NCBI GenBank assembly: GCA_004284765.1
Contig: NQJD01000002.1
Coordinates: 60,001 to 92,000, forward strand
Reading direction: 5' to 3'
DNA from: Candidatus Electronema aureum
Lineage (GTDB): Bacteria > Desulfobacterota > Desulfobulbia > Desulfobulbales > Desulfobulbaceae
Length of the DNA stretch: 32,000 nucleotides
Each line of letters starts with the position of its first letter. Within the stretch, counting starts at the first letter, position 1. This document shows positions 2,245 through 32,000 of this stretch, piece by piece. A model generated the notes under the pieces. The model was not told the DNA's origin, searched no databases, and was given only the letters and a program-made list of their open reading frames with translations. The position numbers and the translations under genes are program-made.

Positions 2245-3321
2245 TTACCCCTCCTTCACCTCCAGCACATCCACCAGCCTGCCGCCGTAGTCATTTCGCA
2301 CCATCTCCCACAGCCCGGCATAGTTGTTCACCCGGATTGCCAAAGAACTCAGGGCCGAGCCGCTGAAGCCGGGCAAGCTGTGTTCGCCGTTCTGCGTCAC
2401 GCTCACCTCTGCGCCTGCCGCGCCGCCCTCCTTCATGTCCAGCAGCGAGAACAGCAGCCGTTCCCCTTGGATATCCGCAACAACTTGGATGCGCAGCCTC
2501 GTGTCCTCAGTTGCCGAGCCGCCGGTCGCGTTGACATAGGCACTGGCTGCGCTGCCGGTGAGAATGCCGGTCTCCGGCGGATGCGGATGGCCGAAATTGC
2601 TCAGAGTCAGCGGCGTGCGCAGCATCCGCTCATAGATGCCGGTGCGCGGCGTGCCGTGCTTGGTGTAGCGGGTGGTGACAGCAATAGTGTACTCGTTGTT
2701 CCACGGATGCGCCTGCGCCGGAATCTCCGGCATGAGCATGATGGCACTGTTGGAGACGAGGTTCAGGCGGGTCTGCACGGCGCGACCGCCCGCCGTGCCT
2801 TCGATCACGCATTCGCCGCCGCCCAGCTCCGGGTCAAAGGCAAGGTCTTCGCCGGTGAGCTGAAGCACGCCGTCCGGGTTGAGCACATCAGGCAGCTTGA
2901 GCAGCGTGTCCTCAGCCGTGTTGATCAGCGGCAGTTTCTTGTCCCGCGACAAGCGTTCGAGCTGGGCCGCATGACGCACTTCGGCGACAAAGGGCGGCGA
3001 GGCATGGACGCGCACTTGCAGGCATTGGTCAACAGGCGGCGGCGCGTCGTCCGCGCTGTTCAGCCGGGCGGTGAAGGAGAGGGAGTAGGTGAAATTGTTC
3101 TCCTCAGTCACCTGCTCGCCGTTGATCAGGCTCTGGCGGACAACCTTGTTGCGCGTGGCGAGGATGGTGCGCAGCTCCTCCGCGCTGTAGTTAGGCAGCT
3201 CGGTGGCCATGCGGGCGGCCAGCTCTTGGGTGTCCACCACATTTCTCGGTAGGAAGACCATCTTGTACGAGCTGGGAGTGGTGAGCGCGTTGACTGCGGG
3301 CTGCCATTGAATCGTTGTCAT
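2245..3321 (-). CDS. HU-like DNA-binding N-terminal domain protein with Ig-like middle region (DUF4469-like by recollection) and a ~90-aa C-terminal domain
   Basis: ORF 2245-3342. I prefer the ATG at 3321 (MTTIQWQP...) because AGGAG lies 9 nt upstream and 3342 is a TTG. The N-terminus (VDTQELAARMATELPNYSAEELRTILATRNKVVRQSLINGEQVTEENNFTYSLSF) has the pattern of HU-fold proteins. GC is about 60-70% in sampled stretches. The C-terminal ~90 aa recur as a fragment at 28977-29250. Confidence 0.7.
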   Translation of the reverse strand: MTTIQWQPAVNALTTPSSYKMVFLPRNVVDTQELAARMATELPNYSAEELRTILATRNKVVRQSLINGEQVTEENNFTYSLSFTARLNSADDAPPPVDQCLQVRVHASPPFVAEVRHAAQLERLSRDKKLPLINTAEDTLLKLPDVLNPDGVLQLTGEDLAFDPELGGGECVIEGTAGGRAVQTRLNLVSNSAIMLMPEIPAQAHPWNNEYTIAVTTRYTKHGTPRTGIYERMLRTPLTLSNFGHPHPPETGILTGSAASAYVNATGGSATEDTRLRIQVVADIQGERLLFSLLDMKEGGAAGAEVSVTQNGEHSLPGFSGSALSSLAIRVNNYAGLWEMVRNDYGGRLVDVLEVKEG

Positions 3322-3424
3322 AGCCTGTCTCCTGATCTTCAAATGATTGAGATGACTGCATGAACCTTATTTCTGCGCAAGATACGGCGAGTTTGTTTCC
3401 CTGTCAACAGTTTTCTCCTGCCGC

Positions 3425-3600
3425 CGCATAATGAATGGCCGGGAAAAAGCACGCTCGTGCTCAGAAAAAACATAGTGTGTGCTCATTGGAAAACCATGCA
3501 CTATGTCGTACCGAAACCATGCTCGTGCTCGGAAAAAACATAGTGCTATGTCGTCCTACGGCATAGTGAATGGTTTTTCAGAAAGCACGAGGGTGGTTTT
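3425..3600. promoter_or_regulatory. Repeat-rich divergent intergenic region (imperfect tandem duplication plus inverted copies of an AGCACGAG/CTCGTGCT core)
   Basis: Palindrome AGCACGCTCGTGCT at 3448-3461. CTCGTGCT-CRG-A6-CATAGTG at 3454-3477 and 3522-3545. CTATGTCGT at 3501-3509 and 3546-3554. GCATARTGAATGG at 3426-3438 and 3561-3573. Inverted core AGCACGAG at 3584-3591. Confidence 0.6.
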
Positions 3601-3640
3601 TTGGGGAGCAGCGGGGAGGGCAGAAAACGACGGGCCGCTT

Positions 3641-3662
3641 TGCTATAATTTTTCTATTGACA
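3641..3662 (+). promoter_or_regulatory. Promoter-like elements upstream of the HExxH gene (extended -10 TGCTATAAT, then TTGACA)
   Basis: TGCTATAAT at 3641-3649 is a perfect extended -10. TTGACA lies at 3657-3662. Both are 100-130 nt upstream of the ATG at 3769. Confidence 0.3.
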
Positions 3663-3768
3663 GGGGAAGATATGTTCCAATAAACTGGTGAGTAGAGAAT
3701 GTTGCAGTTTTTCTATATACCATCATACTTACGCCGCAAGATTTCTTGTTAGGCACACGAGGATCAAA

Positions 3769-4359
3769 ATGGACACCGAGATTATTCGACGATTAAGAGC
3801 AGCTCTCCCGATGGTGCGTGAATGGATCGACCTCTTTGTGCAGGATCATGCGTCGCAGGCTCGCGCAATCAGCTCGTTGGATTTCAAGCGGCTGCCAGCC
3901 TTCTTCCATCAAGAGCTGCTTGAACAGACGAAAGTTGTGACAGTGGAACGTGTGCCCTTCCCGCCTCTCAGCAGATTTGGTCTCCCTGAGTTCGCTGCAT
4001 TTGAGCACTCCGTACTTGAGCAAACATGGGTTGGGGGCGTTACGTTTCAAGACACGATTTTCCTCAAAGTTGGCCAGCCATCCGAATCCGAGAGCCTGCA
4101 CTTTCATGAATTGGTCCATGTTGTGCAATGGAATCAACTCGATGCTGACAACTTCCTCCTAGCATACGCGATCGGACTGGTTCAGTTCGGATACAGAGAG
4201 AGTCCGTTGGAGCAGATGGCCTACTCACTGCAAGCACAGTTCGAGGAGGGATCACTTCAACCAACCCTTGCAACCGCAACCGAGATCGAGAAGCGCACTG
4301 AAGCTATCTGGGGACAAGTTGCACCAATCCTCGCTGCGGCAGCAGCGAGTGACACCTAA
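3769..4359 (+). CDS. HExxH metallopeptidase-like protein (HELVHVVQ motif, reminiscent of DUF4157-type domains)
   Basis: ORF 3688-4359. I prefer the ATG at 3769 (MDTEIIRR...) because GAGGA lies 7 nt upstream. Motif context: GVTFQDTIFL...SLHFHELVHVVQW. Confidence 0.6.
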   Translation: MDTEIIRRLRAALPMVREWIDLFVQDHASQARAISSLDFKRLPAFFHQELLEQTKVVTVERVPFPPLSRFGLPEFAAFEHSVLEQTWVGGVTFQDTIFLKVGQPSESESLHFHELVHVVQWNQLDADNFLLAYAIGLVQFGYRESPLEQMAYSLQAQFEEGSLQPTLATATEIEKRTEAIWGQVAPILAAAAASDT

Positions 4360-4444
4360 CACATTGAGCAGGTTGGGCAAACGGTTTTATCGTTTGCCCA
4401 CACTGAAGCATGACCTGCACATCTCCTGAGCAGAGAGGAGCCTG

Positions 4445-4867
4445 ATGCGTTCGCGTTCACTCCTGATTGAATACACAAGACCGTGGAAACTGCTCACGCT
4501 GCTGGCTGGCGTGTCGTTGATGATTGCTGGCGCGCTGGCTGACCTCGCCCCTGACTGGGATGTTCCCATCAGCCTCATCATGCCGTTCCTCACCTACTTG
4601 ACCGCCCCGTGGAGCATGAGAGTCGTTCTCCAGCGCAAGTGGAGGAAATTCCCTTTGATGCTGTTCTACACTTGGTTTACAGTGGACGGTGTCTATTGGC
4701 TGTATTGGCGTTTCAAGGCTCCTGAGGTTCTGGAGCTGATGCGGTATGACAACTTTATCACCTCGCTGCCCCTGTACGGCATCTGCGGCCTGATCTGGCT
4801 GTATCAGGGCAGTGTCAGCCAGTTCATCGCTGAAGTCAAAGCATTCACATTCAAAATGTCCAACTGA
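4445..4867 (+). CDS. Hypothetical integral membrane protein (140 aa, about 4 hydrophobic helices, Trp/Tyr-rich)
   Basis: Intact ORF with GAGGAG 6 nt upstream of the ATG. Hydrophobic segments include LLTLLAGVSLMIAGAL, ISLIMPFLTYL, FPLMLFYTWFTVDGVYWLYW and LPLYGICGLIWLY. Confidence 0.65.
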   Translation: MRSRSLLIEYTRPWKLLTLLAGVSLMIAGALADLAPDWDVPISLIMPFLTYLTAPWSMRVVLQRKWRKFPLMLFYTWFTVDGVYWLYWRFKAPEVLELMRYDNFITSLPLYGICGLIWLYQGSVSQFIAEVKAFTFKMSN

Positions 4868-4869
4868 GC

Positions 4870-4918
4870 GGCAAGGCAACCATCGCGCCTGGCAAGGCAA
4901 CCATCGCGCCTGGCAAGG
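4870..4918. repeat. 21-bp tandem repeat, 2.3 copies (GGCAAGGCAACCATCGCGCCT)
   Basis: Perfect units at 4870-4890 and 4891-4911, and a partial unit at 4912-4918, starting right after the stop codon of the 140-aa membrane protein. Confidence 0.9.
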
Positions 4919-5082
4919 AGCAGGCGTAATGAGCAGCGCAGCAATGCTACAAGCCAGCCTGCGGCTCTGTCAAATAAAAGACTGACGCTTATTCATCATC
5001 TATTCATCTTTCTTCTGTTATTGTATAAAGGTAATCAGCACGCATCGTGCATGAACACATCAACTAAAACAGGAGGAACATC

Positions 5083-7252: not shown

Positions 7253-7416
7253 TACTGCTCTGCAGCTCCTGTGAGAAAATGAAAAGGGGCGCAGCGTTGC
7301 GCCCAGCATTGGTGCAAAAAAGGCAGACTGTACAGCAGAAAGAACAAAAAGACAAGGGGATTGGTGGGAAGCGGCGTTTTGGGGGAATAGCCCCGCAGGT
7401 GGGATAGAACCCCGCT

Positions 7417-7860
7417 TCAGGGATAAAACGTGTTGTCGAGGATTTGTTCTAACGTGTAAGGACAACTGTCTGGCAATATTGATTCATCCACACCGATTTG
7501 CCTGACGATGCTGTCAACTGCATAGCTGTAGGCCCGTTCAGCGCAGGCAGCCAGATGCGCTTGCAGACTGGGGCTGTCACTTAAACACTCTGCAATTCTT
7601 CTGCGTTGTTCTCGCACAGTGAGTTTCCAGCCGCGTTCATTCTGTGCCAGTAATACATTGAGATAATTCAGCTTGAGCAGATGCGCTATCAATACCTCCA
7701 ACCTGCTTTGCAATTCTCTTTTTTCCCGTGCGCCCATGCTCTCAATTTCATCCGCCAAATGTTCAAAATCAAGCTCATCAGCGCATCGTTCACGGAGAAG
7801 TCGGGCATTGCGCATGGCCCAAGCGTAACTGTCTATTTCGTAGAGGCTTGTGCTGCTCAT
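7417..7860 (-). CDS. DUF29 family protein
   Basis: From the ATG at 7860: MSSTSLYEIDSYAWAMRNARLLRER...LDFEHLADEIESMGAREKRELQSRLEVLIAHLLK...SPSLQ...CPYTLEQILD. This follows the DUF29 consensus layout as I recall it. Confidence 0.7.
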   Translation of the reverse strand: MSSTSLYEIDSYAWAMRNARLLRERCADELDFEHLADEIESMGAREKRELQSRLEVLIAHLLKLNYLNVLLAQNERGWKLTVREQRRRIAECLSDSPSLQAHLAACAERAYSYAVDSIVRQIGVDESILPDSCPYTLEQILDNTFYP

Positions 7861-7906
7861 GGGATTCTCTTTGATCACTTTCCGGCGAAGTGGCAGTTTA
7901 GCTGGG

Positions 7907-9073
7907 CTATCTTGTATTTCTCGCCGTAACCAATAGAAACCTTGCCAGTGCTTCAGTTCTAACAATTAAAGCTTTAAGCTGCGAATTTGTAATTTTTATA
8001 TCAATGGAATGGGTGCCAGACTGAAAGAAACCAATAAATTTGACATGCGAATTTACGTCTTCGTTTAAAAATTCTGCGAATTTGCCGTGATTTATATTTC
8101 TGCAAACATATAACATGCGAGCCTTACGAGTTGGACGGCCTTTATCATAATGTGAAGGTTCTTTTGTCCATTCGTGAACTTTATCATCTGGAGCTATGCC
8201 ATGTAAGATATGTGTAATCATTTCCCTGAGAGAAACGACAACATGCCTATTTTTATCAGGGTTGCCTGATGTCAACGCTTTTTTGGCACCATGCAAAAGC
8301 TGCCGAATTTGTGGATGAAACCAGTCAAGCAATTCTTCAAGAGAGCATTCAATATCTTCTGTTATTTCAGATTCAATAGGTTCTGTTTGGTCGTCAGCAT
8401 CTTCATTGCCATCCCTTGAAATTGTTTCCAGCAAACGTGAACTTGTCAGCAACTCAATAGATGGTAATCTTGAAACAAATGGCGGAAAATTTGTAATTCT
8501 AATCTCGTTTGAATCGAATGACCTGACAAATGAATTATAATTTTCAGTTAAAACGCCAAGAGATTTAACAGCCTTCATCATCTCATTGGTGTTGTAAATG
8601 GAATTTTCTCTTAAAAAGAATTGAGCTGAATCTATACGTTCCTGAGCAAAAAGGGATATTTTTGAGATACTATCAACGTGTGAGTATAAAGCAGAATTTA
8701 CAGCATCTATTTTTAAACTGATACATTTTGCTGCCTTAGCGTCTGCTAACCAGCTACGATCTATAGATGCTGCTTCTATTTCAGCAAGGGATGCACTTCT
8801 TCCAGTAAGTTTATCTATATCCATTGCTGAACCTGAACAAAGATGTTTTACTGCCTTAGCGTCTGCTAACCAGCTACGATCTATAGATGCTGCTTCTATT
8901 TCAGCAAGGGATGCACTTCTTCCAGTAAGTTTCTCCGTATCTATTGCTGAACCAAGATGTTTTGTCGTCTCAATTTCTGCCAGCAAGCGATGACTTATGG
9001 ATGCTGCGGTTTCAGTAATATCAAATTCTTTGAATTTCTCTATACCAAAATGTTTTTTATACAAGTCTTCCAT
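7907..9073 (-). CDS. Hypothetical 388-aa protein with an internal 40-aa tandem duplication and an acidic linker
   Basis: ORF 7907-9091 (TTG). I prefer the ATG at 9073 (MEDLYKK...). Sampled stretches are about 32-42% GC. The C-terminal ~150 aa (RHVVVSLREMITHILHGIAPDDKVHEW...GRPTRKARMLYV) look globular, but I recognise no family. Confidence 0.65.
   Translation of the reverse strand: MEDLYKKHFGIEKFKEFDITETAASISHRLLAEIETTKHLGSAIDTEKLTGRSASLAEIEAASIDRSWLADAKAVKHLCSGSAMDIDKLTGRSASLAEIEAASIDRSWLADAKAAKCISLKIDAVNSALYSHVDSISKISLFAQERIDSAQFFLRENSIYNTNEMMKAVKSLGVLTENYNSFVRSFDSNEIRITNFPPFVSRLPSIELLTSSRLLETISRDGNEDADDQTEPIESEITEDIECSLEELLDWFHPQIRQLLHGAKKALTSGNPDKNRHVVVSLREMITHILHGIAPDDKVHEWTKEPSHYDKGRPTRKARMLYVCRNINHGKFAEFLNEDVNSHVKFIGFFQSGTHSIDIKITNSQLKALIVRTEALARFLLVTARNTR
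8731..8964. repeat. In-frame 120-bp tandem duplication inside the 388-aa gene
   Basis: 8731-8812 and 8851-8932 are identical over 82 bp. The flanks are similar with one 6-bp indel. The encoded units are KHLGSAIDTEKLTGRSASLAEIEAASIDRSWLADAKAV and KHLCSGSAMDIDKLTGRSASLAEIEAASIDRSWLADAKAA. Confidence 0.95.
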
Positions 9074-9442
9074 TGTTCGTCTGTCTCTCAATTGGTTTGT
9101 TTTTCAATATTGCCCTTAGCTATCATTCAACTATCTATAACAATATCCAGCAACTGACACTGCCATACAGATACCGCTTCTCTGATCAAAAAATTATGTC
9201 CTCGCTCCGTCAAGGAAAATTCTTCCAGCCTTTAGTGCTAAACGCCCCTGCCAAGGCACCCGCATAGGTTTTACCAAGGTATGAGCTTAGGAGTTCCTAT
9301 TAGATTAAGAAAAACCTAATAGGTCTTCATTTCCTCTGAAGGTACATGTAACCACAGGCCGATGCTTTACCCTGTTCTTACCAGAATAGAGCCTGATCTT
9401 GTTGTTTTCTATAAAAAGTCACGCTGATGGGATTGTACTTAG

Positions 9443-9802
9443 TCAGTCGAGTACAATCAGCAGCCAGACAACAGCAGCGTTGATCATGGCGATAAACACC
9501 GCCGCTGAAGCTAAGTCCTTGGCTTTGCCTGAGAGGGAGTGATGCTCCAAGCTAATGCGGTCAATGGCCGCTTCTACTGCCGTGTTGAGTACTTCCACGA
9601 TGAGAATCAGTAGCAGGCTGCCTATTAGCATGGCTCGCTCTACCCCACTCTGACCGAGGACAAAGGCAAGGGGGATGAGGACGCAAAACGAATAGATTTC
9701 CTGTCGGAAGGCAATCTCTTGCCAAGCAGCGACAAGACCGGCCAAAGACCAACCCAAGGCTTTACGGAGATGGCTTTTAGATGTTTTTTGAGAGTCGGGC
9801 AT
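9443..9802 (-). CDS. dgkA: Diacylglycerol kinase (prokaryotic DgkA family)
   Basis: From the ATG at 9802 (119 aa): AFRQE, EVLNTAVEAAIDRIS and AKDLASAAV are DgkA signature segments. The upstream extension in the track ORF is unlikely. Confidence 0.85.
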   Translation of the reverse strand: MPDSQKTSKSHLRKALGWSLAGLVAAWQEIAFRQEIYSFCVLIPLAFVLGQSGVERAMLIGSLLLILIVEVLNTAVEAAIDRISLEHHSLSGKAKDLASAAVFIAMINAAVVWLLIVLD

Positions 9803-17811: not shown

Positions 17812-18336
17812 AAAGATGGCCTGACCAAGAATGATCACTTCCGCTCCATGCTACAAACAGCCCGCCAGCGCGGATTTCAGCCTGAGTTTGTCCTTTTTGA
17901 CAGTTGATACGCCAGCTTGAAGAATCTCAAGCTTATCCGTTCGTTGGGCTGGCAGTGGCTGACTCGCTTGGAACATAATCGCCATGTTGATCCAAACAGA
18001 ACGGGAAATATCTTGCTTAATCAGGTCGATATCTCTCAGTCGGGCCGTTCTGTTCATCTCAAAGGCTACGGCATGATCAAGGTATTCAAGATCGTCAGAA
18101 CGGATACTGACATTGAATACTGGGCCAGCAGTGACCTCAATATGAGCGATCTCATGCGGCTCAAATATGCTGAATTATCTTGGATGATTGAAACGTACCA
18201 TCGCGGAGTTAAACAATTTTGCGGGATTGAACGCTGTCAGGCCCGGTCAGAAAACGCGCAACGCAATTACATCGAACTGGCAATACGGGCTTTTCTCCGC
18301 ATTGAATATCATTGTTTTGTCAAAGGAATTTCTTAG
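17812..18336 (+). pseudogene. DDE transposase, C-terminal portion with an in-frame TGA
   Basis: KDGLTKNDHFRSMLQTARQRGFQPEFVLFDS*YASLKNLKLIRSLGWQWLTRLEHNR...SWMIETYHRGVKQFCGIERCQARS. The FDSWY Trp codon is TGA at 17905-17907. The C-terminal IE..H...K signature is that of IS4/IS701-type DDE enzymes. Confidence 0.7.
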
Positions 18337-23924: not shown

Positions 23925-24156
23925 TATGTTTCATTCAACTTGTTGTTTATTGCATCCAGTTAATAGTAGGCTAACCCAAGTTGTGAGTTATAGCATGATT
24001 TTTCCGATGCCGTCAGCCAATATGAACATCAATACTTTCAGCTCAAAGCATTGATGAGTAACGGCATGTATATGTGCTGAATGCAGATTCGATGCGCTTT
24101 CGGAAAAACTGAGTTCCCGCTGCAACAAATTGCAGGCTGCAAGGGAAAAAGGGACT

Positions 24157-24777
24157 TTATGCCAAGCTCCTGAGTGCGGCACGGATCAGCTCGCTCACCG
24201 TCATGGTAGCGGCCTTGTCTGGATCAGTCTGCTGCACGGTGCGCAGGGCCTGCCAAGCAGTTTCCTGCGGATAGCCGAGGTTCATCAGGGCTGAGGCCGC
24301 ATCGTGCAGGGCAAAGCCCTCGACGCGGGGCGGCGCGTTGGCTTTGGTCGGCAGCGGGCCAATCTCCCCGGCAAAGGCGGGCATCTTCTCAGCCAGCTCC
24401 ATGCAAAGGCGCTCGGCTGTTTTCTTGCCCACGCCGGGCAGGGTGGTCAGGCGTTTGCTATCCTTTAGGCTAATTGCGCTGCATAGCGCAGCAGGCTCCA
24501 AGCCCGACAGGATGGCGAGAGCCAGCTTTGGCCCTACGCCAGAGACCGTGTTCAGGAGGAGGAAGAGCCGCTTCTCGCTGCTGTCCGGGAAGCCGTAGAG
24601 GGTGATGGCATCCTCGCGCACGCTGGTGTGAATGTGGAGCGCAACCTTCTCGCCCGGCGGTGGCAGACTGTCGCTGGTGCGGGTGGAGATATGAATCTCG
24701 TAACCCACCCCTTGCACGTCAATGATAGCGACAGCAGGGTCTTTGCTGAGGAGGAGGCCAGAGAGGTAGGCGATCAT
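24157..24777 (-). CDS. ruvA: Holliday junction branch migration complex subunit RuvA
   Basis: MIAYLSGLL...VIDVQGVGYEIHIS, two HhH segments (LLNTVSGVGPKLALAIL, LTTLPGVGKKTAERL) and a C-terminal domain III. Its ATG overlaps the stop of the upstream ORF (ATGA at 24774-24777). Confidence 0.92.
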   Translation of the reverse strand: MIAYLSGLLLSKDPAVAIIDVQGVGYEIHISTRTSDSLPPPGEKVALHIHTSVREDAITLYGFPDSSEKRLFLLLNTVSGVGPKLALAILSGLEPAALCSAISLKDSKRLTTLPGVGKKTAERLCMELAEKMPAFAGEIGPLPTKANAPPRVEGFALHDAASALMNLGYPQETAWQALRTVQQTDPDKAATMTVSELIRAALRSLA

Positions 24778-25577
24778 TTCACGTTGTTTTTGTACAAATC
24801 TGCATTGGTGGAATCAATCAGCGCGGTGATGCTGTTGACGATGTTCTCGTAGGATTTCTTGCGTACTTCATCATCCTTCACATCTTCCGCGAGCCGCTGC
24901 GCCATGACGATATGATCATTGATGACCGGCTGGGTGAAATAGCGGTTGAGCTGGTTAAGCGACAGCTTGTGAACATCAAGGAAGGTTGTGGTGATATACG
25001 CGCTGATGCCGCCGCCGATGGCGGAAATAGCTGCGCCTGCGGCAACATGGTTGGCACCGTCTGCGGAAAGGATGAAACTGCCGCCCCAGAACATGAAGCC
25101 CATGCCAGCGCACATGGAGAGGATGGCGAAGAAGAATGACAGCGAGGCGCGAATTCTTGTTTCTTGCTGATACTTTTCAATCTGCTTACTGTAGAGATTG
25201 AAGAGATTTCCCAGGATGATAGCCTTTTGATTCTCCTCTATAATCTTGCTGATACTTTCAGCTTTCTCCTGCAATCCTTCATGGGATTTATACAATATTG
25301 ATATTGTCTTTTTTATCTCTTCCGGGGTTGTGCTGTATGCTTTCTTTTCAGCTTCTTCTATTTTCTCGTTTGAATCAAAAAAAGTAGCTATTGAATATGA
25401 ACTGAATAATATTGGAGCAAATATCACCAGAAGACTAAGCCAACCTTGTTTTATTTCAACCGTAACTTGTTTTATCTCAGGAGCTACTACCGCCAGGGCA
25501 GCTGCGATAAATAAAAGCAAACTAATAATAAATACGACTAATATATACTTCTTGTAGACTTTTAATGATCCAATCAT
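24774..25577 (-). CDS. Polytopic membrane protein (267 aa: 2 TM, coiled coil, 2 Gly/Ala-rich TM, soluble tail); candidate membrane effector or toxin
   Basis: Intact ORF with ATGA overlaps at both ends. Hydrophobic helices: YILVVFIISLLLFIAAALAVV, WLSLLVIFAPILFSSYSIATFF, SLSFFFAILSMCAGMGFMFWGG and AAGAAISAIGGGISAYITTTF. There is a K/E-rich stretch between them. GC changes sharply near 25150. Confidence 0.7.
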   Translation of the reverse strand: MIGSLKVYKKYILVVFIISLLLFIAAALAVVAPEIKQVTVEIKQGWLSLLVIFAPILFSSYSIATFFDSNEKIEEAEKKAYSTTPEEIKKTISILYKSHEGLQEKAESISKIIEENQKAIILGNLFNLYSKQIEKYQQETRIRASLSFFFAILSMCAGMGFMFWGGSFILSADGANHVAAGAAISAIGGGISAYITTTFLDVHKLSLNQLNRYFTQPVINDHIVMAQRLAEDVKDDEVRKKSYENIVNSITALIDSTNADLYKNNVK

Positions 25578-25789
25578 TGTGCTTGGTTCGTTTTTATATC
25601 TTTTGCCTGATGATTATTAGAACGAGAAAAAAGCTCGCACTCCCGCAAGTAGTTATAACGCTGCATATCCATCACAACAAATCTCGCTTCGCCACGCACC
25701 GTGATGATTGCCTCACAATCACCGGAAAGACATTTCTCAATGGCGGCGACACCTTCTGTTCTTAGCTGGCTGGCGGTTATGCTGTTCAT
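25574..25789 (-). CDS. Phd/YefM-like antitoxin-family protein (71 aa)
   Basis: MNSITASQLRTEGVAAIEKCLSGDCEAIITVRGEARFVVMDMQRYNYLRECE follows the Phd/YefM N-terminal pattern (..I.as.lr....i......e.viit.rG....Vvm....Y..L.E.E). Its stop overlaps the start of the 267-aa ORF. Confidence 0.6.
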   Translation of the reverse strand: MNSITASQLRTEGVAAIEKCLSGDCEAIITVRGEARFVVMDMQRYNYLRECELFSRSNNHQAKDIKTNQAQ

Positions 25790-25989
25790 ATCTTCCCTCG
25801 TTTTTTCTCGCTCCGAAACACGGTTAACATGTACGACTGTAAATCAGTTCCCTGCCGCAAGCAAGCGGAAAAGCCGCCCTCACCCCGCCTGCCGCTCCAA
25901 TCTGCACAAAACCCTTTACGCCGCAGCGTTTGCTGGTAAGATAGCACCATTCGACATTATTTCAACCACTCTGCACAAGGAGAATCATC

Positions 25990-27556: not shown

Positions 27557-28036
27557 ATGAAAAGAACGATATACATCGAAACGAGCGTCATCAGCTACTT
27601 GGCTGCCGAAATGTCAGAAAATATCAGGATAAGCAGTCACCAGCTTGTCACACATGCTTTCTGGAAAACGCTCCCGAATTATAATGTTTTTATTTCAGAC
27701 ACTGTTGTCATGGAAGCATCGTGTGGCGATGCAGGGAAGGTGCAACGTCGGCTTTGGGAAATCCGTGACTTTTCTGTTCTTGACACAGACGCTAAGACTC
27801 AAGAGTTGGCAAAGTCGCTTATCAGGGAAAAGGCTGTTCCTGAAAAATGCCCGGAAGATGCAGTTCATATTGCTGTAGCGGCAGCACACGATATCGAATT
27901 TATCGTCACTTGGAACTTCAAACACATCAACAATCCGTTCATGATGCGCAAAATAAGCAGTGTTGTAACGAATCATGGCTGCTCCATGCCCGTAATCTGT
28001 TCACCAGAAGAATTCATGGAGGCGGAGCATGATTGA
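27557..28036 (+). CDS. PIN-like domain protein (VapC-like toxin candidate)
   Basis: 159 aa. N-terminal IYIETSVISYL and C-terminal EDAVHIAVAAAHDIEFIVTWNFKHI match the acidic-residue layout of PIN-fold nucleases as I recall it. It overlaps the next ORF by 8 nt. Confidence 0.55.
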   Translation: MKRTIYIETSVISYLAAEMSENIRISSHQLVTHAFWKTLPNYNVFISDTVVMEASCGDAGKVQRRLWEIRDFSVLDTDAKTQELAKSLIREKAVPEKCPEDAVHIAVAAAHDIEFIVTWNFKHINNPFMMRKISSVVTNHGCSMPVICSPEEFMEAEHD

Positions 28037-28217
28037 TCCGATCATAGAGGAAGTCAGAAAGTATCGGGATGAACACGCCCGTAGATTCAACTACAATTTA
28101 GACATGATTTGCGAAGACCTGCGCAGTCGGCACGCCCAGAATGTGGATCGGCTGAAAGAGATAAGAACAGTCGGCAAGACTGATGCGCTGGATGCTTATC
28201 CGCAGCACCGGCATTGA
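28029..28217 (+). CDS. Small 62-aa partner ORF of the PIN-like gene (possible antitoxin); 3' end runs into the ilvC repeat
   Basis: MIDPIIEEVRKYRDEHARRFNYNLDMICEDLRSRHAQNVDRLKEIR... The start overlaps the PIN stop (ATGATTGA). The last 7 codons (AYPQHRH) read repeat copy 2 out of frame, so the C-terminus may not be native. Confidence 0.45.
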   Translation: MIDPIIEEVRKYRDEHARRFNYNLDMICEDLRSRHAQNVDRLKEIRTVGKTDALDAYPQHRH

Positions 28218-28285
28218 GACTGTCGGTGCGACCTTGCGTGGCTACATGAGCGCGATGAAGGCGATTATCTGAGGTTGGTTGCCGG
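28198..28285 (+). pseudogene. Direct repeat copy 2: orphan ilvC 3' fragment (last 24 codons plus stop)
   Basis: In the ilvC frame it encodes [27 protein letters not shown], against [27 protein letters not shown] in the intact gene. There is no upstream ilvC coding sequence. Confidence 0.85.
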
Positions 28286-28313
28286 GAATAACTATCTATA
28301 GATGTAAGAAATC

Positions 28314-28838
28314 ATGCGAACCTTACCGCCTTACAGCACCATTATGGGAGCTAATGATGTTTCTCACTTCCTTCATACTGTTGAGGAGCGAAAAAATGAG
28401 AAAGTACCACTCGATCAGTTCTACAGGGAAACAGAGACGGAAAAGAAACGGATGTGGACTCTAATCAATCCAGGTTTATTGCTCTCACAAGCCTATATCT
28501 ATTTTGTTTATGGTCAAGAGAAAGGTCTTCTGGATGGATTTGACATAAGTAATTTTTTTTCGCAAATTACTGTCAACTACTCAGGTTACAGCGACCTCCC
28601 TGAGAGAGAAAAGAGCAAACTTATCAGACGACGACTACGAAACTCTATCGCACACTGTAGATATGACATTGAGATTCGTACTACTGATGGTGAAATCAAC
28701 AAAGATGGTGATATAGTGTTTGTATTCACCGATGAGAAACATGATAAATCTGACAAGATCAAGTTTGAGATGAATCTTCCAACCTTTGGCAATATAGTTG
28801 AAGGTGCTGGTGCTCACATATTAAACGCATTGAGATGA
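28314..28838 (+). CDS. Hypothetical 174-aa protein with an HEPN-like R-x4-H motif (RNSIAH)
   Basis: Intact ORF, about 38% GC in a sampled stretch. LIRRRLRNSIAHCRY (RNSIAH at 28638-28655) resembles the RN..AH catalytic motif of Abi2/AbiD-type and other HEPN RNases. The start is uncertain (28314 or 28344) and there is no clear RBS. Confidence 0.4.
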   Translation: MRTLPPYSTIMGANDVSHFLHTVEERKNEKVPLDQFYRETETEKKRMWTLINPGLLLSQAYIYFVYGQEKGLLDGFDISNFFSQITVNYSGYSDLPEREKSKLIRRRLRNSIAHCRYDIEIRTTDGEINKDGDIVFVFTDEKHDKSDKIKFEMNLPTFGNIVEGAGAHILNALR

Positions 28839-28976: not shown

Positions 28977-29250
28977 TCACCCCATCTTCACGTCCAGCAC
29001 ATCCACCAGCCTGCCGTCATACTCATTGACGACCAGCGTCTTCAAGGCGGCGTAGTTGTTCACCTTGATGCTCAGGCTGCTCACTGCCGAGCCGCTGAAG
29101 CCGGGCAGCACAAATTCCCCGTTTCCGGTGGCCGGGACGATCATGCCCTGCGCGCCGCCGTCCTGCATGTCAATCAGCTTGAAGGCGAGAATGTCATCCT
29201 GCACGTTGTGCTCGACCTGCACCCGCAGCCGCGTGTCCGCCGTCAGGCTG
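28977..29250 (-). pseudogene. C-terminal fragment of a paralogue of the 2245-3321 gene
   Basis: (GSLTA)DTRLRVQVEHNVQDDILAFKLIDMQDGGAQGMIVPATGNGEFVLPGFSGSAVSSLSIKVNNYAALKTLVVNEYDGRLVDVLDVKMG aligns with ..EDTRLRIQVVADIQGERLLFSLLDMKEGGAAGAEVSVTQNGEHSLPGFSGSALSSLAIRVNNYAGLWEMVRNDYGGRLVDVLEVKEG. Homology starts abruptly near 29245, and a TAA lies just upstream in that frame. Confidence 0.75.
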
Positions 29251-29361
29251 CCTTAGCGTGTCCAGAACGAACTGGCTGACGCTCTTCCGCGCTGCGGCGG
29301 CCTGCTGTTTCAGTAGAGCCGCGAGCTGCTCGTCAACGCTCTGTATGGATAGTGATGCCAT
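29194..29361 (-). CDS. Ribbon-helix-helix (CopG/Arc-type) antitoxin-like protein with a non-native C-terminal tail
   Basis: GAGGAG lies 8 nt upstream of the ATG at 29361. MASLSIQSVDEQLAALLKQQAAAARKSVSQFVLDTL has the beta-strand/helix/helix layout of RHH antitoxins. The remaining 19 codons read the paralogue fragment out of frame. Confidence 0.5.
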   Translation of the reverse strand: MASLSIQSVDEQLAALLKQQAAAARKSVSQFVLDTLRQPDGGHAAAGAGRAQRAG

Positions 29362-29628
29362 AATATGCTCCTCAGATATGATATGCTTTCGGGACAAGCA
29401 GGGGCGGCCCCCTGTGGCCGCCTTGTCATGTGAAGGGCGGAACCCGCGCACCGCCTCGTCTAACTTCCGTATCAACAGGCCGGTGAGCACCTTCGGATAG
29501 AAGAAGGTCGATTTGTGCAGCATGATATTGCCGCTGTCTGCTACCTTCAGCACGTGCGCCACTTTGGTTGGATTGAGGCCAAGCTGCTTCTGAATCAGGC
29601 TTGTCCCCATCTTCCTCAGCCATTCCAC
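29362..29628 (-). CDS. Uncertain small ORF coupled to the ATPase gene (possible HTH-like segment)
   Basis: A GTG at 29628 overlaps the ATPase stop (GTGGAATGGCTGA). It encodes ..MGTSLIQKQLGLNPTKVAHVLKVADSGNIMLHK.. and runs in frame, with no stop, into the RHH ORF. Coding status is unproven. Confidence 0.3.
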
Positions 29629-32000
29629 TCTCCCGGCAAGGCGAAGGGCCGAAATTTCTCCTGCATTCCTTCCTCTGCGCTGTGCAGCAGAGCGCGATGC
29701 TGACCTAATTTGCTGGCAGCGGGCGAGTCAATAAGCGCGATGGAATCCTCGCTGCTCATCTGCAAGACAACCCGCAGTTCAAATTCCCGCACAGACTGCC
29801 GCGAGAGACGGCGGTTCAGGTTGCCGTTGGTGTCGCACCAGATGATGCTGTGAATGCCAACTTCCGGGCTTTCTTTCAAAATTTCGGCGAACTGCTTGCC
29901 AAGCTCATTATCAGCAGAAGAATAACTGTCTCCCGGTTCCAGATCGCGGGCGCGATGCAGGCCGTAGATGACAAAATAGATGGTTGGCTTTTGCTGCAAA
30001 TCATCTTCATGCTCAAGACGCTGCTTCACTTCCTCGGCAAGAAAGTTGACAATTCCAGCAAAATGCCGACGTTTTCCGTAATGCGCTTGCTGCGCCAGGC
30101 TTTCCGCCAGCACCTTGAGCACATCGCTGTGCGGATCATCGGCGGAGCTGAAATCAATCAGGTAAAAAACTGCTGATTCTTTCCGGTGTTGTGCAGCCAA
30201 GGTCAGCAGGCTGGTTGCAATCATGCCTTTAGCCGCTTCATCGTCTTGCCCGACAATCGCCAGATTGCTGCCGCTTTGCCGCCGGAACTGCGCCACAGTC
30301 GCCTCTTTGATGGCAATCGGCTCGCCCAGCCAAGCGGAAAAACGTTTCAGCGGCGCGGTAGTTGGAGGATGCAGCAGGCGCGTTGCCTTCAAAAACAATC
30401 TGGCTTTGCGGGAAAGCGAAATTTTGCTGCCGGGCCAGAGCATTAATCTTGTCCAAATATTGATCCCGCTCCTCATCAGGCAGCCATGCGACTTGAAACG
30501 GATTGTTGCCTTCAACCAAGCCGTTTGCCGCATTATAGATCGCCTCGCCGGGCCGGGAAAGCAGCCGCGCAGCCGCGTTGTCATCGCTCAGAATCAGGCG
30601 GGAATCCGTTTCGCTGCATTGCAAGGCAATTCTGACCGCCATTTGATCAATGGTGCTGCGAGCTAAGGTGTAGGTTCCGGCCAAAGTCTGCGAACCCAAG
30701 ATGATATGAACGCCGAAGGCCCGGCCTTGACGCACCAAGCGGTCTAAAATTTGCGAGACCTTGGCAGCGACCGGATCATCTTCTGTGAAAAATTCCTGAA
30801 ATTCATCCACAAGCAGGATGATGCGCGGCATGATCTGGCTGGTTTTCCGGCGGTAATTTTTCAAATCGGCAACTTCCGCCTTGCGGAAGAGGTCGCCGCG
30901 CCGCTTCAGCAAGGCATCTAAATCTTGCAGAACGCTCAGGCCAAACTCGCGTTCGCTTTCAATGGCGATTACCCGCGCATGAGGCAGAGCATGTGCGGCA
31001 TAGGTTTTGAACTCCACGCCTTTCTTGAAGTCAATCAGGTAGAACTGCACTTCATCAGGGCTGTAGGTGAGCGCCAAATTGACGATGAGGACATGCAGTA
31101 GCGTTGATTTGCCGGAGCCTATTTTGCCAGCAATCAGCGCGTGATGGGATGTTCCTTTGCCCAGCTCAAGAAATTGCACCCGGTTTGCGCCCACCGGGCC
31201 AAGCGGAATGCGGATTTCCTCGGCAGTGCTGCCGCGCTGCCATGCTTCGGGGCTTAGTCCAGCCTTTTCCAAGATTTTTGCAAAGGGAACTTCCACCCGC
31301 ATTGCTGCCACTGCCGCTTTGCCGACCTGACTGATGATGGTGTTGAAATATTCCTGCGCTGGCGGTTCATCCAGCGAGAGCAGGCATTTAAAGTCACGTG
31401 CCCCCCATATTAGCTGATTTTCATTTTCATACGAATGGAAAACTCTAGTATGTCGTCCAATATTTCTGATATCAAATCTATGCGGCATATTTTTTTCACG
31501 ATCGCAAATAATGATGGTGTAGATGCCGCAGCGCGGACCATTTTGGAGAATGCTGATCAAACGGCGCACTGCATCTTCGCTGAAGTTGGCTGGAAAATCA
31601 TTGATGATCAGGAAACGGTACGGTTCCGTCAGCTCGCCTGCATAGGAGTTGAATTCCTCAATGGTTTTGTAAGTGTTGCGCAAATATTTCTGAATGACAT
31701 TCTCAATATGCTCAGTCAGCTCGCCAAGCCGCTGCTCGATATGTCGCGGCTCTGACCATGCTTTTGTTGTGACCAAAGATTCATCGTAATCCGCCAGATG
31801 CAGAAATGCGGCGGCATTTTGACCAAGACCGACAGGATCAATAAAGGTGAAGCGCAGTTTTCCCGGCGGAATTGATGCGGTCAGGCGCAGCAGGAGGGAT
31901 TGAAGCTGCTTGGCGATGAGGTTTCTTTCCTCTCCGTTTATCGAGAAGAGAATTCCTTGCTCAGAAGGAAAGGGCAGCAGAGCGGGCATGGAAAACTGAC
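29616..32000 (-). pseudogene. Multi-domain FtsK/SpoIIIE-family ATPase (EssC/EccC-like triple P-loop architecture), frameshifted and 5'-truncated by the window edge
   Basis: ORFs 30238-31989 and 29616-30584 overlap in frames offset by 1 nt, with the sense switching near 30355-30390 (..QIVFEGNAPA / LLHPPTTAPLKRFSAWLGEPIAIKE..). The middle domain has Walker A GKIGSGKS (31105-31128) and Walker B ILLVDEFQ (about 30796-30816). The flanking domains are degenerate (INGEERN; VGQDDEAAKG). The frame stays open upstream of 31989 to the window end. Confidence 0.7.

Follow-up and report, generated by a model that had tools for sequence, protein, structure and literature searches.

Gene Chain in Front of ruvA

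A stretch of 32,000 nucleotides (nt) from Candidatus Electronema aureum (assembly GCA_004284765.1, contig NQJD01000002.1, positions 60,001 to 92,000), which will be referred to as the window, carries on its minus strand a chain of three genes, in which a short gene resembling those of Phd/YefM antitoxins and a gene for a membrane protein of 267 amino acids (aa) precede ruvA. A first inspection of the letters alone, here called the sequence-only reading, had proposed that the two genes form a non-canonical antitoxin and membrane-effector pair that recombined in front of ruvA and is possibly expressed with it. The comparative analysis described here argues instead for an antitoxin that has lost its own toxin and came to lie beside an unrelated membrane gene. 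The three genes are as follows.

24157-24777, minus strand: ruvA, full length, 206 aa (TIGR00084, E 1.6e-60; RuvA_N, HHH_5 and RuvA_C domains)
24774-25577, minus strand: membrane gene of the PF20712 family, 267 aa (open reading frame (ORF) call)
25574-25789, minus strand: Phd/YefM-like antitoxin stump gene, 71 aa (ORF call)

The chained ORFs lie exactly where the sequence-only reading had placed them, and the plus strand reads TCAT at both 25574-25577 and 24774-24777, so that the two described ATGA overlaps are present on the coding strand. Independent gene calls on Logan contigs identical to the window list the same three genes. Both the 71-aa and the 267-aa gene are real, with many homologues and ratios of nonsynonymous to synonymous substitution rates (dN/dS) well below 1. 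The chain is bordered by ilvC on the upstream side and by aroA after ruvA. A 54-aa ORF at 25786-25950 on the minus strand, which shows an ATGA overlap with the antitoxin start, extends across the conserved non-coding block upstream of the chain and is absent from the independent gene calls; it is probably spurious. Overlaps of this kind evidently come about with ease, as this ORF illustrates, and an ATGA overlap by itself carries little weight. The 71-aa protein is 100% identical to a protein of Ca. Electronema aureum, and the DNA accordingly comes from a cable bacterium.

The reported shift in base composition was reproduced as well. Within the 267-aa gene the GC content is 31.7% at 25381-25440 and 55.0% at 24961-25020, and the AT-rich block at 25150-25650 contains 35.1% GC. 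At third codon positions the GC content (GC3) of the 267-aa gene is 0.20-0.40 over codons 1-120 and 0.57-0.73 over codons 121-267. The corresponding values are 0.57 over aa 1-53 and 0.16 in the tail of the 71-aa gene, and 0.76 for ruvA.

The 71-aa Phd/YefM-Like Antitoxin

Two parts can be distinguished in the 71-aa gene.

25631-25789, minus strand: antitoxin stump aa 1-53, predicted N-terminal dimerisation and DNA-binding domain (PF02604, AlphaFold, Foldseek, dN/dS)
25574-25630, minus strand: antitoxin stump tail aa 54-71 and stop codon, at the proposed deletion junction (alignments A2 and A6)

The profile PF02604 (PhdYeFM_antitox) matches aa 1-50 with an E value of 1.6e-4 and 21.8 bits, falling short of the gathering score of 29.8, and homologues of the protein carry precomputed PF02604 matches. 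An AlphaFold model obtained with 23 homologues (predicted local distance difference test (pLDDT) 69) has the order beta-alpha-alpha-beta-beta-alpha. When this model was compared with the PDB by Foldseek, 49 of the 50 matches listed were chains of Phd/YefM-type antitoxins, the best of them with a probability of 0.99 and an E value of about 1e-2. Operator-bound Phd, Phd truncated at residue 57 and YefM rank at the top, and YefM-YoeB, RelJ and PfiAT complexes are also among these matches. The Phd/YefM layout recognised by the sequence-only reading is thus seen both in the sub-threshold profile match and in the modelled fold, and a failure of the Phd/YefM profiles, which that reading had named as a reason to give up its proposal, did not occur. 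According to the model, the protein has the Phd/YefM N-terminal dimerisation and DNA-binding fold.

Full-length relatives of the antitoxin are 83-87 aa long and share the C-terminus 'RECELEAALxxxxADxxAGxxIxESVDxHIxR' (alignments A2 and A6). The window antitoxin tracks the family as far as RECEL (aa 53) and then runs into an unrelated, AT-rich tail of 18 aa, FSRSNNHQAKDIKTNQAQ; the pLDDT falls below 50 at aa 63-71. Phd/YefM antitoxins bind their toxin through the C-terminal segment, as seen in the YefM-YoeB and Phd-Doc structures. In alignments A2 and A6 this toxin-binding segment of the family is missing from the window antitoxin. The retained aa 1-53 yielded a dN/dS of 0.14-0.26 in comparison with other truncated copies, and a Shine-Dalgarno-like GAGGGA precedes the ATG of the 71-aa ORF. 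Because of this dN/dS range and of an upstream block that is mostly invariant across six loci, the stump still looks constrained.

Cognate Toxin of the Antitoxin Family and Its Probable Loss

The partner of the antitoxin family became apparent from its intact members (fetched loci are designated by L numbers). Every full-length antitoxin homologue examined in unrelated metagenome contexts (83-84 aa; L022-L027) is followed by an overlapping ORF of 93-96 aa. With a 91-aa ORF which overlaps an intact 83-aa Phd gene in Electronema sp. JC (L013), they share 57-65% identity. A 91-aa toxin ORF overlaps an intact 83-aa Phd in L044 too, and in Electronema sp. TJ (L002) an 80-aa ORF represents most of the same toxin. 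Over their full length, the toxin ORFs align to the models of the YafQ family (TIGR00053, E 1e-8 to 2e-6) and of RelE/StbE, and they align weakly to Pfam YafQ, HigB and ParE as well as to the Helicobacter pylori HP0894 and HP0892 structures, with all of these matches below curated cut-offs. As the full-length homologues overlap YafQ/RelE-like ORFs, the family has its cognate toxin in a small RelE-superfamily protein and not in the membrane protein. No RelE-, YoeB- or Doc-like ORF was detected among the window ORFs scanned.

The intact arrangement in L044 is pbpC, Phd (83 aa), toxin (91 aa), membrane gene (254 aa) and cobD, and the order from pbpC through the 83-aa Phd and the 91-aa toxin to the membrane gene is also found in L013. 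Comparison of the window with related loci by blastn yielded two blocks. The first extends from 25877 to approximately 25617-25631 and comprises the upstream region together with Phd aa 1-53, with DNA homology to L013 stopping at 25631. The second represents the core of the membrane gene; its start varies with the relative compared (25372, 25264, 25205 or 25034), and its end lies at 24763-24773. The approximately 245 bp between the two blocks (32% GC) match none of the fetched loci. Judged from these alignments, the window lineage appears to have lost the toxin gene and the toxin-binding tail of the antitoxin by deletion. The truncated antitoxins of L012, L021 and L028 share with the window the first ~16 nt past the breakpoint, and since these junction nucleotides are common to all of them, the deletion is old. 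Other, independent truncations are present in L041 (81 aa, with the C-terminus partly kept) and in L001 (19 aa only), and the antitoxin gene of L012 additionally contains a premature stop near codon 50.

Conserved Region Upstream of the Antitoxin

The homology of the first blastn block continues beyond the antitoxin start into a non-coding region.

25790-25915, minus strand: conserved non-coding block upstream of the antitoxin (blastn, alignment A4)

Homology of this block to L001, L012 and L013 begins at 25877, and alignment A4, which comprises six loci, contains a 45-nt mostly invariant run upstream of the antitoxin, for which the window sequence is GCTTTTCCGCTTGCTTGCGGCAGGGAACTGATTTACAGTCGTAC. 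The invariant TTGGAG in this alignment sits at the 3′ end of pbpC in relatives, and the bases at ~25897-25915 look like the last bases and the terminator hairpin of pbpC, the upstream gene in sister genomes. Given its position and conservation, the block probably holds the promoter and operator of the toxin-antitoxin module. A promoter scan called no promoter within 25790-25915, the promoter and terminator scan gave site counts not above those of shuffled sequence, and a repeat search upstream of the antitoxin detected no inverted-repeat operator. A terminator-like hairpin at 25649-25634 is probably due to chance.

There are weak hints of what the original gene order may have been. About 12-24 nt at 25897-25915 might represent a remnant of the pbpC 3′ end, and about 20 nt past the membrane gene stop in L001 and L013 might be a remnant of the ruvA 5′ end. 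Faint as they are, both remnants together would suggest an ancestral order pbpC, Phd, toxin, membrane gene, ruvA, which was later broken on different sides in the different lineages.

Family and Structure of the 267-aa Membrane Protein

The 267-aa protein is a member of the PF20712 family (CyanoTRADDas_TM). The profile matches aa 143-210 (window 24948-25151) with 25.2 bits at a cut-off of 24.3, and it is matched by all 73 aligned homologues (best E 3e-11). The 118 close homologues, carrying the NCBI name 'TRADD-N-associated membrane domain-containing protein', are derived from Electrothrix, Electronema, Vibrio, Shewanella, Photobacterium, Acidobacteriota and Bacteroidetes, and NCBI and UniRef already apply the TRADD-N-associated name to the Electronema, Electrothrix, Vibrio and Photobacterium homologues. 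An exhaustive search revealed 725 representative clusters, 184 of them at E <= 1e-10. In these 725 representatives the conserved part (query aa ~104-257) is always C-terminal, behind N-termini of very unequal length. The module follows an Endonuclease_NS domain (E 4e-32) or an 8xMP domain in the long members P0145 (542 aa) and P0153 (639 aa), and several other PF20712 proteins of 400-485 aa have N-terminal regions without a Pfam match.

Hydropathy analysis predicted three transmembrane helices, TM1 at approximately aa 11-33, TM2 at aa 45-67 and TM3 at aa 144-166. The Gly/Ala-rich TM4 (approximately aa 176-198) is below the hydropathy cut-off; it lies inside the PF20712 match and is helical and hairpinned with TM3 in the AlphaFold model. 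This model (pLDDT 82) is all-helical, with helices at 43-82, 85-98 and 103-171, the last of which begins in the Lys/Glu-rich region and extends into TM3. A tight turn separates it from a second long helix at 175-232, which runs from TM4 into the conserved tail and is followed by a final helix. Hydropathy and model together confirm the layout described from the letters, with two N-terminal helices, a Lys/Glu-rich stretch, a Gly/Ala-rich helix pair and a tail.

Of the families of two-helix membrane effectors that the sequence-only reading had proposed for comparison, the TRADD-N-associated family PF20712 was found above threshold. The structure search returned no significant neighbour. The best structural matches of the model were TolQ/ExbB, with an E value of 0.06 and a TM-score of about 0.3; BAR domains and alpha-pore-forming toxins ranked lower. 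In sequence-to-profile searches, SLATT Pfam families gave no match at E up to 1 for the 267-aa protein, nor do they appear in the 25 families most matched by the 73 homologues. The PADLOC model RTasSLATT was detected in one of the 73 members at a chance-level E value of 0.005, and the PADLOC matches as a whole were discarded as coiled-coil noise. No TRADD-N Pfam match was found in the 267-aa protein, its window neighbours, or the neighbours and longer members scanned, with partial coverage of the neighbours. In the TRADD-N papers, modules of this kind are assigned to the conflict systems found in multicellular bacteria (PMC8195603); these papers treat TRADD-N systems, and the PF20712 module is not in their main text. 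A literature search found no paper on the PF20712 family itself.

Variable 5′ Part and Constant 3′ Part of the Membrane Gene

According to conservation and composition, the membrane gene can be divided into three segments.

25374-25577, minus strand: aa 1-68, hypervariable, AT-rich, two hydrophobic helices (hydropathy, blastn)
25206-25373, minus strand: aa 69-124, Lys/Glu-rich helical (coiled-coil-like) linker, AT-rich (alignment A1, AlphaFold)
24774-25205, minus strand: aa 125-267 and stop codon, constant C-terminal module (PF20712, dN/dS)

The constant module consists of LFNLYSKQIEKYQ, the two-helix membrane hairpin and the tail 'FLDVHKLSLxQLNRYFxQPVINDHIxMAQRLA', and its dN/dS of 0.08-0.16 corresponds to strong purifying selection. 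The DNA for aa 1-68 has zero homology to any fetched locus, and these residues are only ~20% identical even to L001, which is otherwise ~87-91% identical. A resemblance of the window N-terminus to the Electrothrix proteins P0010 and P0014 (all start with MIG) was considered and rejected, as the identity is only ~20%. The linker is conserved with L001, the closest relative, only (86% identity, dN/dS 0.09); across the family its length differs, and it is partly deleted in some relatives (alignment A1). Homology to different relatives breaks off at nested positions, namely at codons 69, 105, 125 and 182.

The split in codon composition is likewise not confined to the window. In seven out of seven cable-bacterial copies (window, L001, L002, L003, L012, L015 and L028) the 5′ ~120 codons are AT-rich (GC3 0.1-0.4) and the 3′ half is host-like (GC3 0.6-0.8), with flanking genes at ~0.7. 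As the flip is present in every cable-bacterial copy examined, it is no marker of local recombination. A variable 5′ and a constant 3′ part are a pattern of the whole family, and either segment replacement or diversifying selection may have produced it.

A replacement was observed in Electronema sp. JC (L013 5265-6270), in which the first two-thirds of the PF20712 gene are swapped for an unrelated, AT-rich ORF of 236 aa with its own membrane helices and coiled coil, so that the original codons 175-267 alone remain. L044, 93-94% identical to L013 otherwise, has an intact 254-aa membrane gene (2423-3187).

Genomic Neighbourhoods and Linkage to ruvA

In Electrothrix the membrane gene resides in the ruv cluster in two arrangements, either as ftsJ, yebC, ruvC, DUF2809, AAA/PDDEXK_9, two small ORFs, membrane gene and ruvA, or as yebC, ruvC, DUF2809, membrane gene and recC. 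The 4-nt overlap between membrane gene and ruvA seen in the window is also present in the Electrothrix loci L018-L020. Because it is common to Electrothrix, this overlap is old, and the recombination in front of ruvA that the sequence-only reading had suggested was not a recent one. In L029 the site is uninterrupted and carries the canonical order ftsJ, yebC, ruvC, ruvA, ruvB; in cable bacteria, the gap between ruvC and ruvA looks like a hot spot for insertions. In L018 (positions 2499-5004; Electrothrix, GCA_003704795) the region from ruvC to the membrane gene encodes DUF2809, a 534-aa protein with AAA-ATPase_like and PDDEXK_9 domains, a 67-aa ORF and a 116-aa ORF, the last of which matches the C-terminal part of the Rpn family of recombination-promoting nucleases (TIGR01784, E 1e-6).

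Other Electronema-type genomes carry the membrane gene between pbpC, with the Phd module, and a major facilitator superfamily (MFS) gene or cobD. Altogether, the 3′ end of the membrane gene adjoins four different genes: ruvA, recC, MFS and cobD. Compared with these arrangements, the window would seem to join the left side of the pbpC-Phd arrangement to the right side (ruvA) of the Electrothrix ruv arrangement.

The stump adjoins the membrane gene in the window and likewise in L012, L021, L028 and L041. Their spacing is a 4-nt overlap in the window and elsewhere a 14-nt overlap or a gap of 24, 85 or 137 nt. In L001, which carries the closest relative of the membrane gene, Phd is reduced to 19 aa. 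No Phd gene was found beside the membrane gene at any Electrothrix locus, and tblastn for Phd at nine non-cable genome loci of the membrane gene gave no match. Hosts in which the membrane gene occurs free of Phd thus comprise Electrothrix, L001 with its 19-aa stump, Vibrio, Shewanella, Sulfurovum and other genera. According to the neighbourhood survey, the pairing of Phd and membrane gene is not conserved, and the linkage to ruvA is found in one of the two Electrothrix arrangements but not in other Electronema genomes or in non-cable hosts.

In non-cable hosts the neighbours include AbiEi/AbiEii and TIR (Sulfurovum), AAA_15 (Bacteroidetes), GmrSD (Marinomonas) and DUF7946/7947 (Shewanella); a TIR gene lies beside one distant homologue only (L005). 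The Vibrio cholerae homologue, which shows 63% identity over 71% of the query, is a single-gene superintegron cassette between ~127-nt V. cholerae repeats (VCR) (L045 1-3409; GCA_024218035). This locus contains five copies of the conserved 43-nt repeat core, four of the five being full ~127-nt VCR copies (TAACAAACGCCTCAAGAGGGACTGTCAACGCG), and the repeats separate Phd-ParE, DUF3709, a 174-aa ORF and the membrane gene. The Phd of the Phd-ParE cassette is unrelated and lies several cassettes away from the membrane gene. In Vibrio splendidus (L047) the membrane gene is part of a row of small genes adjoining a fragment of a tyrosine recombinase, possibly an integron integrase. A tblastn search of plasmid and phage collections with the 267-aa protein gave no match.

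The side of ruvA facing aroA was considered as well.

23925-24156, no strand: spacer between ruvA and aroA, 232 bp, 40.9% GC (no RNA family in Rfam)

Length and AT-richness of this gap are as originally described. A Rfam search of the whole window yielded zero RNA families, and the single weak terminator-like hairpin in the spacer (24056-24027) is not above chance expectation. No ruvB or ruvC was found among the window ORFs scanned. The sequence-only reading had regarded a ruvA without a following ruvB as unusual, but a ruvB-like ORF immediately downstream is also missing, judged from ORF size and sequence only, in six of nine unrelated metagenomic ruvA loci, all of them distant (<=50% identity) and informative on the order ruvC-ruvA-ruvB and not on cable-bacterial synteny.

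Interpretation of the Locus

These findings are best explained, and we consider this highly probable, by a historical juxtaposition in which the stump of a toxin-antitoxin module came to lie beside a PF20712 gene at ruvA; the chain would then not be a toxin-antitoxin pair. The PF20712 family combines a constant C-terminal module, made up of a cytoplasmic helical stalk, the Gly/Ala-rich hairpin and the conserved ~65-aa tail, with a variable N-terminus, which in the window is represented by two extra membrane helices. The membrane gene is passed on horizontally by itself; it is found as an integron cassette in Vibrio and elsewhere among defence genes, and in cable bacteria it is a long-standing resident of the ruv cluster, overlapping the ruvA start. 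In the Electronema lineage a type II module of Phd/YefM and YafQ/RelE lies just upstream of it. By the deletion in the window lineage, the 53-aa DNA-binding domain would have acquired a tail of junk sequence and have been joined accidentally to the start of the membrane gene. The stump might still bind the old toxin-antitoxin operator, and if so, it would govern how far the associated promoter drives the membrane gene and ruvA. The membrane protein itself may be an oligomerising membrane anchor or effector of a conflict system, for which the variable N-terminus would provide specificity.

Several points weigh against this explanation. The comparison of the 267-aa model with PDB and BFVD detected no significant structural neighbour, and the profile matches of both antitoxin and toxin fall short of curated cut-offs. 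The dN/dS of the stump is based on just 53 codons. The 5′ half of the membrane gene stays AT-rich in GC-rich hosts, even where it is conserved (aa 69-124 compared with L001), which the juxtaposition does not account for. Phd, whole or as a stump, adjoins the membrane gene in nine Electronema-type loci, so that a functional link is possible there. Finally, it is we who infer the regulatory role of the stump and its co-transcription with ruvA.

The most serious alternative, though in our view an unlikely one, is that the 71-aa ORF is a non-functional pseudogene remnant which remained open by chance, with the membrane gene and ruvA using their own promoter. It departs from the juxtaposition described above only at the step of operator binding and transcription. 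The loss of the toxin-binding part, the premature stop near codon 50 in L012, the almost complete loss of the gene in L001 and the poorly conserved stump tail of low pLDDT would all fit a decaying gene, and a promoter-like site is present within the membrane gene (25180-25153, minus strand), at a frequency of such sites not above chance. Nevertheless, aa 1-53 show a dN/dS of 0.14-0.26 among truncated copies with the same junction, GAGGGA is retained ahead of the ORF, and the upstream non-coding block is largely invariant in six loci.

A more elaborate version, which we regard as improbable, would have the PF20712 module act as a constant effector or anchor with a swapped or diversified N-terminal specificity segment, domesticated in the ruv cluster of the multicellular cable bacteria, and the Phd stump of Ca. 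Electronema aureum co-opted as a repressor of the promoter driving the membrane protein and ruvA. N-termini which are ~20% identical between copies ~90% identical elsewhere can be cited for this version, as can the nesting of the breakpoints (codons 69, 105, 125 and 182) and the AT-richness that the 5′ half shows in all cable-bacterial copies. If it were true, a former addiction-module regulator would control the repair gene ruvA.

It is also rather doubtful that cable bacteria have domesticated the membrane protein as a housekeeping partner of RuvA, RuvC or RecC, for example as a membrane tether for repair complexes, with the stump being irrelevant. The location of its gene in several Electrothrix assemblies, with ruvC on one side and ruvA or recC on the other, the overlap onto ruvA in both Electrothrix and Ca. 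Electronema aureum and the strong purifying selection on the PF20712 module would be in line with such a role, but the gene is found between pbpC and an MFS or CobD gene in other Electronema genomes, its 3′ end adjoins ruvA, recC, MFS or cobD, and other bacteria carry it, without ruv linkage, as an integron cassette or in a defence island.

The pairing originally proposed, with the 71-aa protein as non-canonical antitoxin of the 267-aa membrane effector in a toxin-antitoxin or abortive-infection module expressed with ruvA, is very improbable, since, for all the adjacency of stump and membrane gene in the window and four further loci, their ATGA overlap in the window, the purifying selection on the N-terminal domain of the stump and the placement of the family of the 267-aa protein in conflict systems (PMC8195603), the conserved partner of the antitoxin family is a YafQ/RelE-like toxin, the toxin-binding C-terminus is missing and its replacement tails vary in length and sequence among relatives, the spacing ranges from a 14-nt overlap to a 137-nt gap, the closest membrane-gene relative retains 19 aa of Phd, and Phd is missing beside the homologues of Electrothrix and of all non-cable hosts. 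The homologues of the 267-aa protein are thus conserved membrane proteins without antitoxin partners, an outcome that the sequence-only reading itself had listed as speaking against its proposal. The claim of a new toxin-antitoxin class, in which a Phd-type antitoxin is combined with a membrane toxin, should be dropped in favour of ordinary decay of a toxin-antitoxin module beside an unrelated gene.

On the explanation preferred here, a historical juxtaposition, the locus would provide a clear example of toxin loss leaving a conserved DNA-binding stump of the antitoxin in front of housekeeping genes. It also draws attention to a widely transferred family of membrane proteins (725 clusters) with a constant C-terminus, a fast-changing N-terminus and a split codon composition. 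Located in the cable-bacterial ruv cluster and under strong purifying selection, the membrane gene is a reasonable candidate for functional study.

Other Elements in the Window

Further genes of defence or mobile character were observed at some distance from the chain. Past ilvC, at 27557-28838 on the plus strand (44-46% GC), a PIN-domain ORF of 159 aa (PF01850, E 8e-7) overlaps a 62-aa ORF without family, and a 174-aa ORF shows a sub-threshold HEPN match (pEK499_p136, E 1e-4); this cluster may be another small toxin-antitoxin or defence islet. A low-GC island (38-43%) at 7400-9500 on the minus strand encodes a DUF29 protein of 182 aa (7417-7965) and a 394-aa protein (7907-9091) for which a pPIWI-associated nuclease domain is predicted (pP_pnuc_1, E 1e-25). 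No Argonaute or PIWI gene was found among the window ORFs scanned. Moreover, a DDE_Tnp_1 transposase fragment of 139 aa is present at 17917-18336 (plus strand), a 144-aa ORF with a FitA-like ribbon-helix-helix antitoxin domain at 29194-29628 (minus strand) and an FtsK/SpoIIIE-family protein of 583 aa at 30238-31989 (minus strand), which suggest more mobile-element debris in the window.

Comparison with Known Systems

Both genes in front of ruvA are members of already known families, PF20712 and Phd/YefM. The ruvA gene itself is intact and can be compared with the cluster yebC-ruvC-ruvA-ruvB, for which Electrothrix has the same upstream genes, ftsJ-yebC-ruvC, as L029. Unlike the canonical cluster, cable bacteria insert DUF2809, the membrane gene and sometimes PDDEXK_9 or Rpn-like genes between ruvC and ruvA, and in the window aroA follows ruvA, with neither ruvC nor ruvB among the ORFs scanned. 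In Vibrio integrons the V. cholerae homologue is a single gene bounded by VCR repeats, whereas the window gene is not an integron cassette, because its stop overlaps the ruvA start and leaves no room for attC. No integrase was detected in the window parts scanned.

SLATT two-helix effectors have been predicted to form pores in response to nucleotides (Burroughs et al. 2015, summarised in PMC7159879). The window protein resembles them in having a two-helix membrane hairpin flanked by cytoplasmic helices and homologues among defence genes, but it matches no SLATT Pfam family at E up to 1, and no nucleotide-signal enzyme lies near the gene in the window. With the PF20712 family it agrees more closely, matching above the gathering score as do all 73 homologues. 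Compared with PF20712/TRADD-N systems, it stands alone and carries two extra, hypervariable membrane helices at its N-terminus.

The stump, finally, shares the N-terminal fold of Phd/YefM antitoxins according to its model, and its full-length relatives overlap the gene of a RelE-superfamily toxin. In contrast to these, the window copy lacks both the toxin-binding segment and the toxin gene and thereby resembles the Phd N-domain and the experimentally truncated Phd 1-57.

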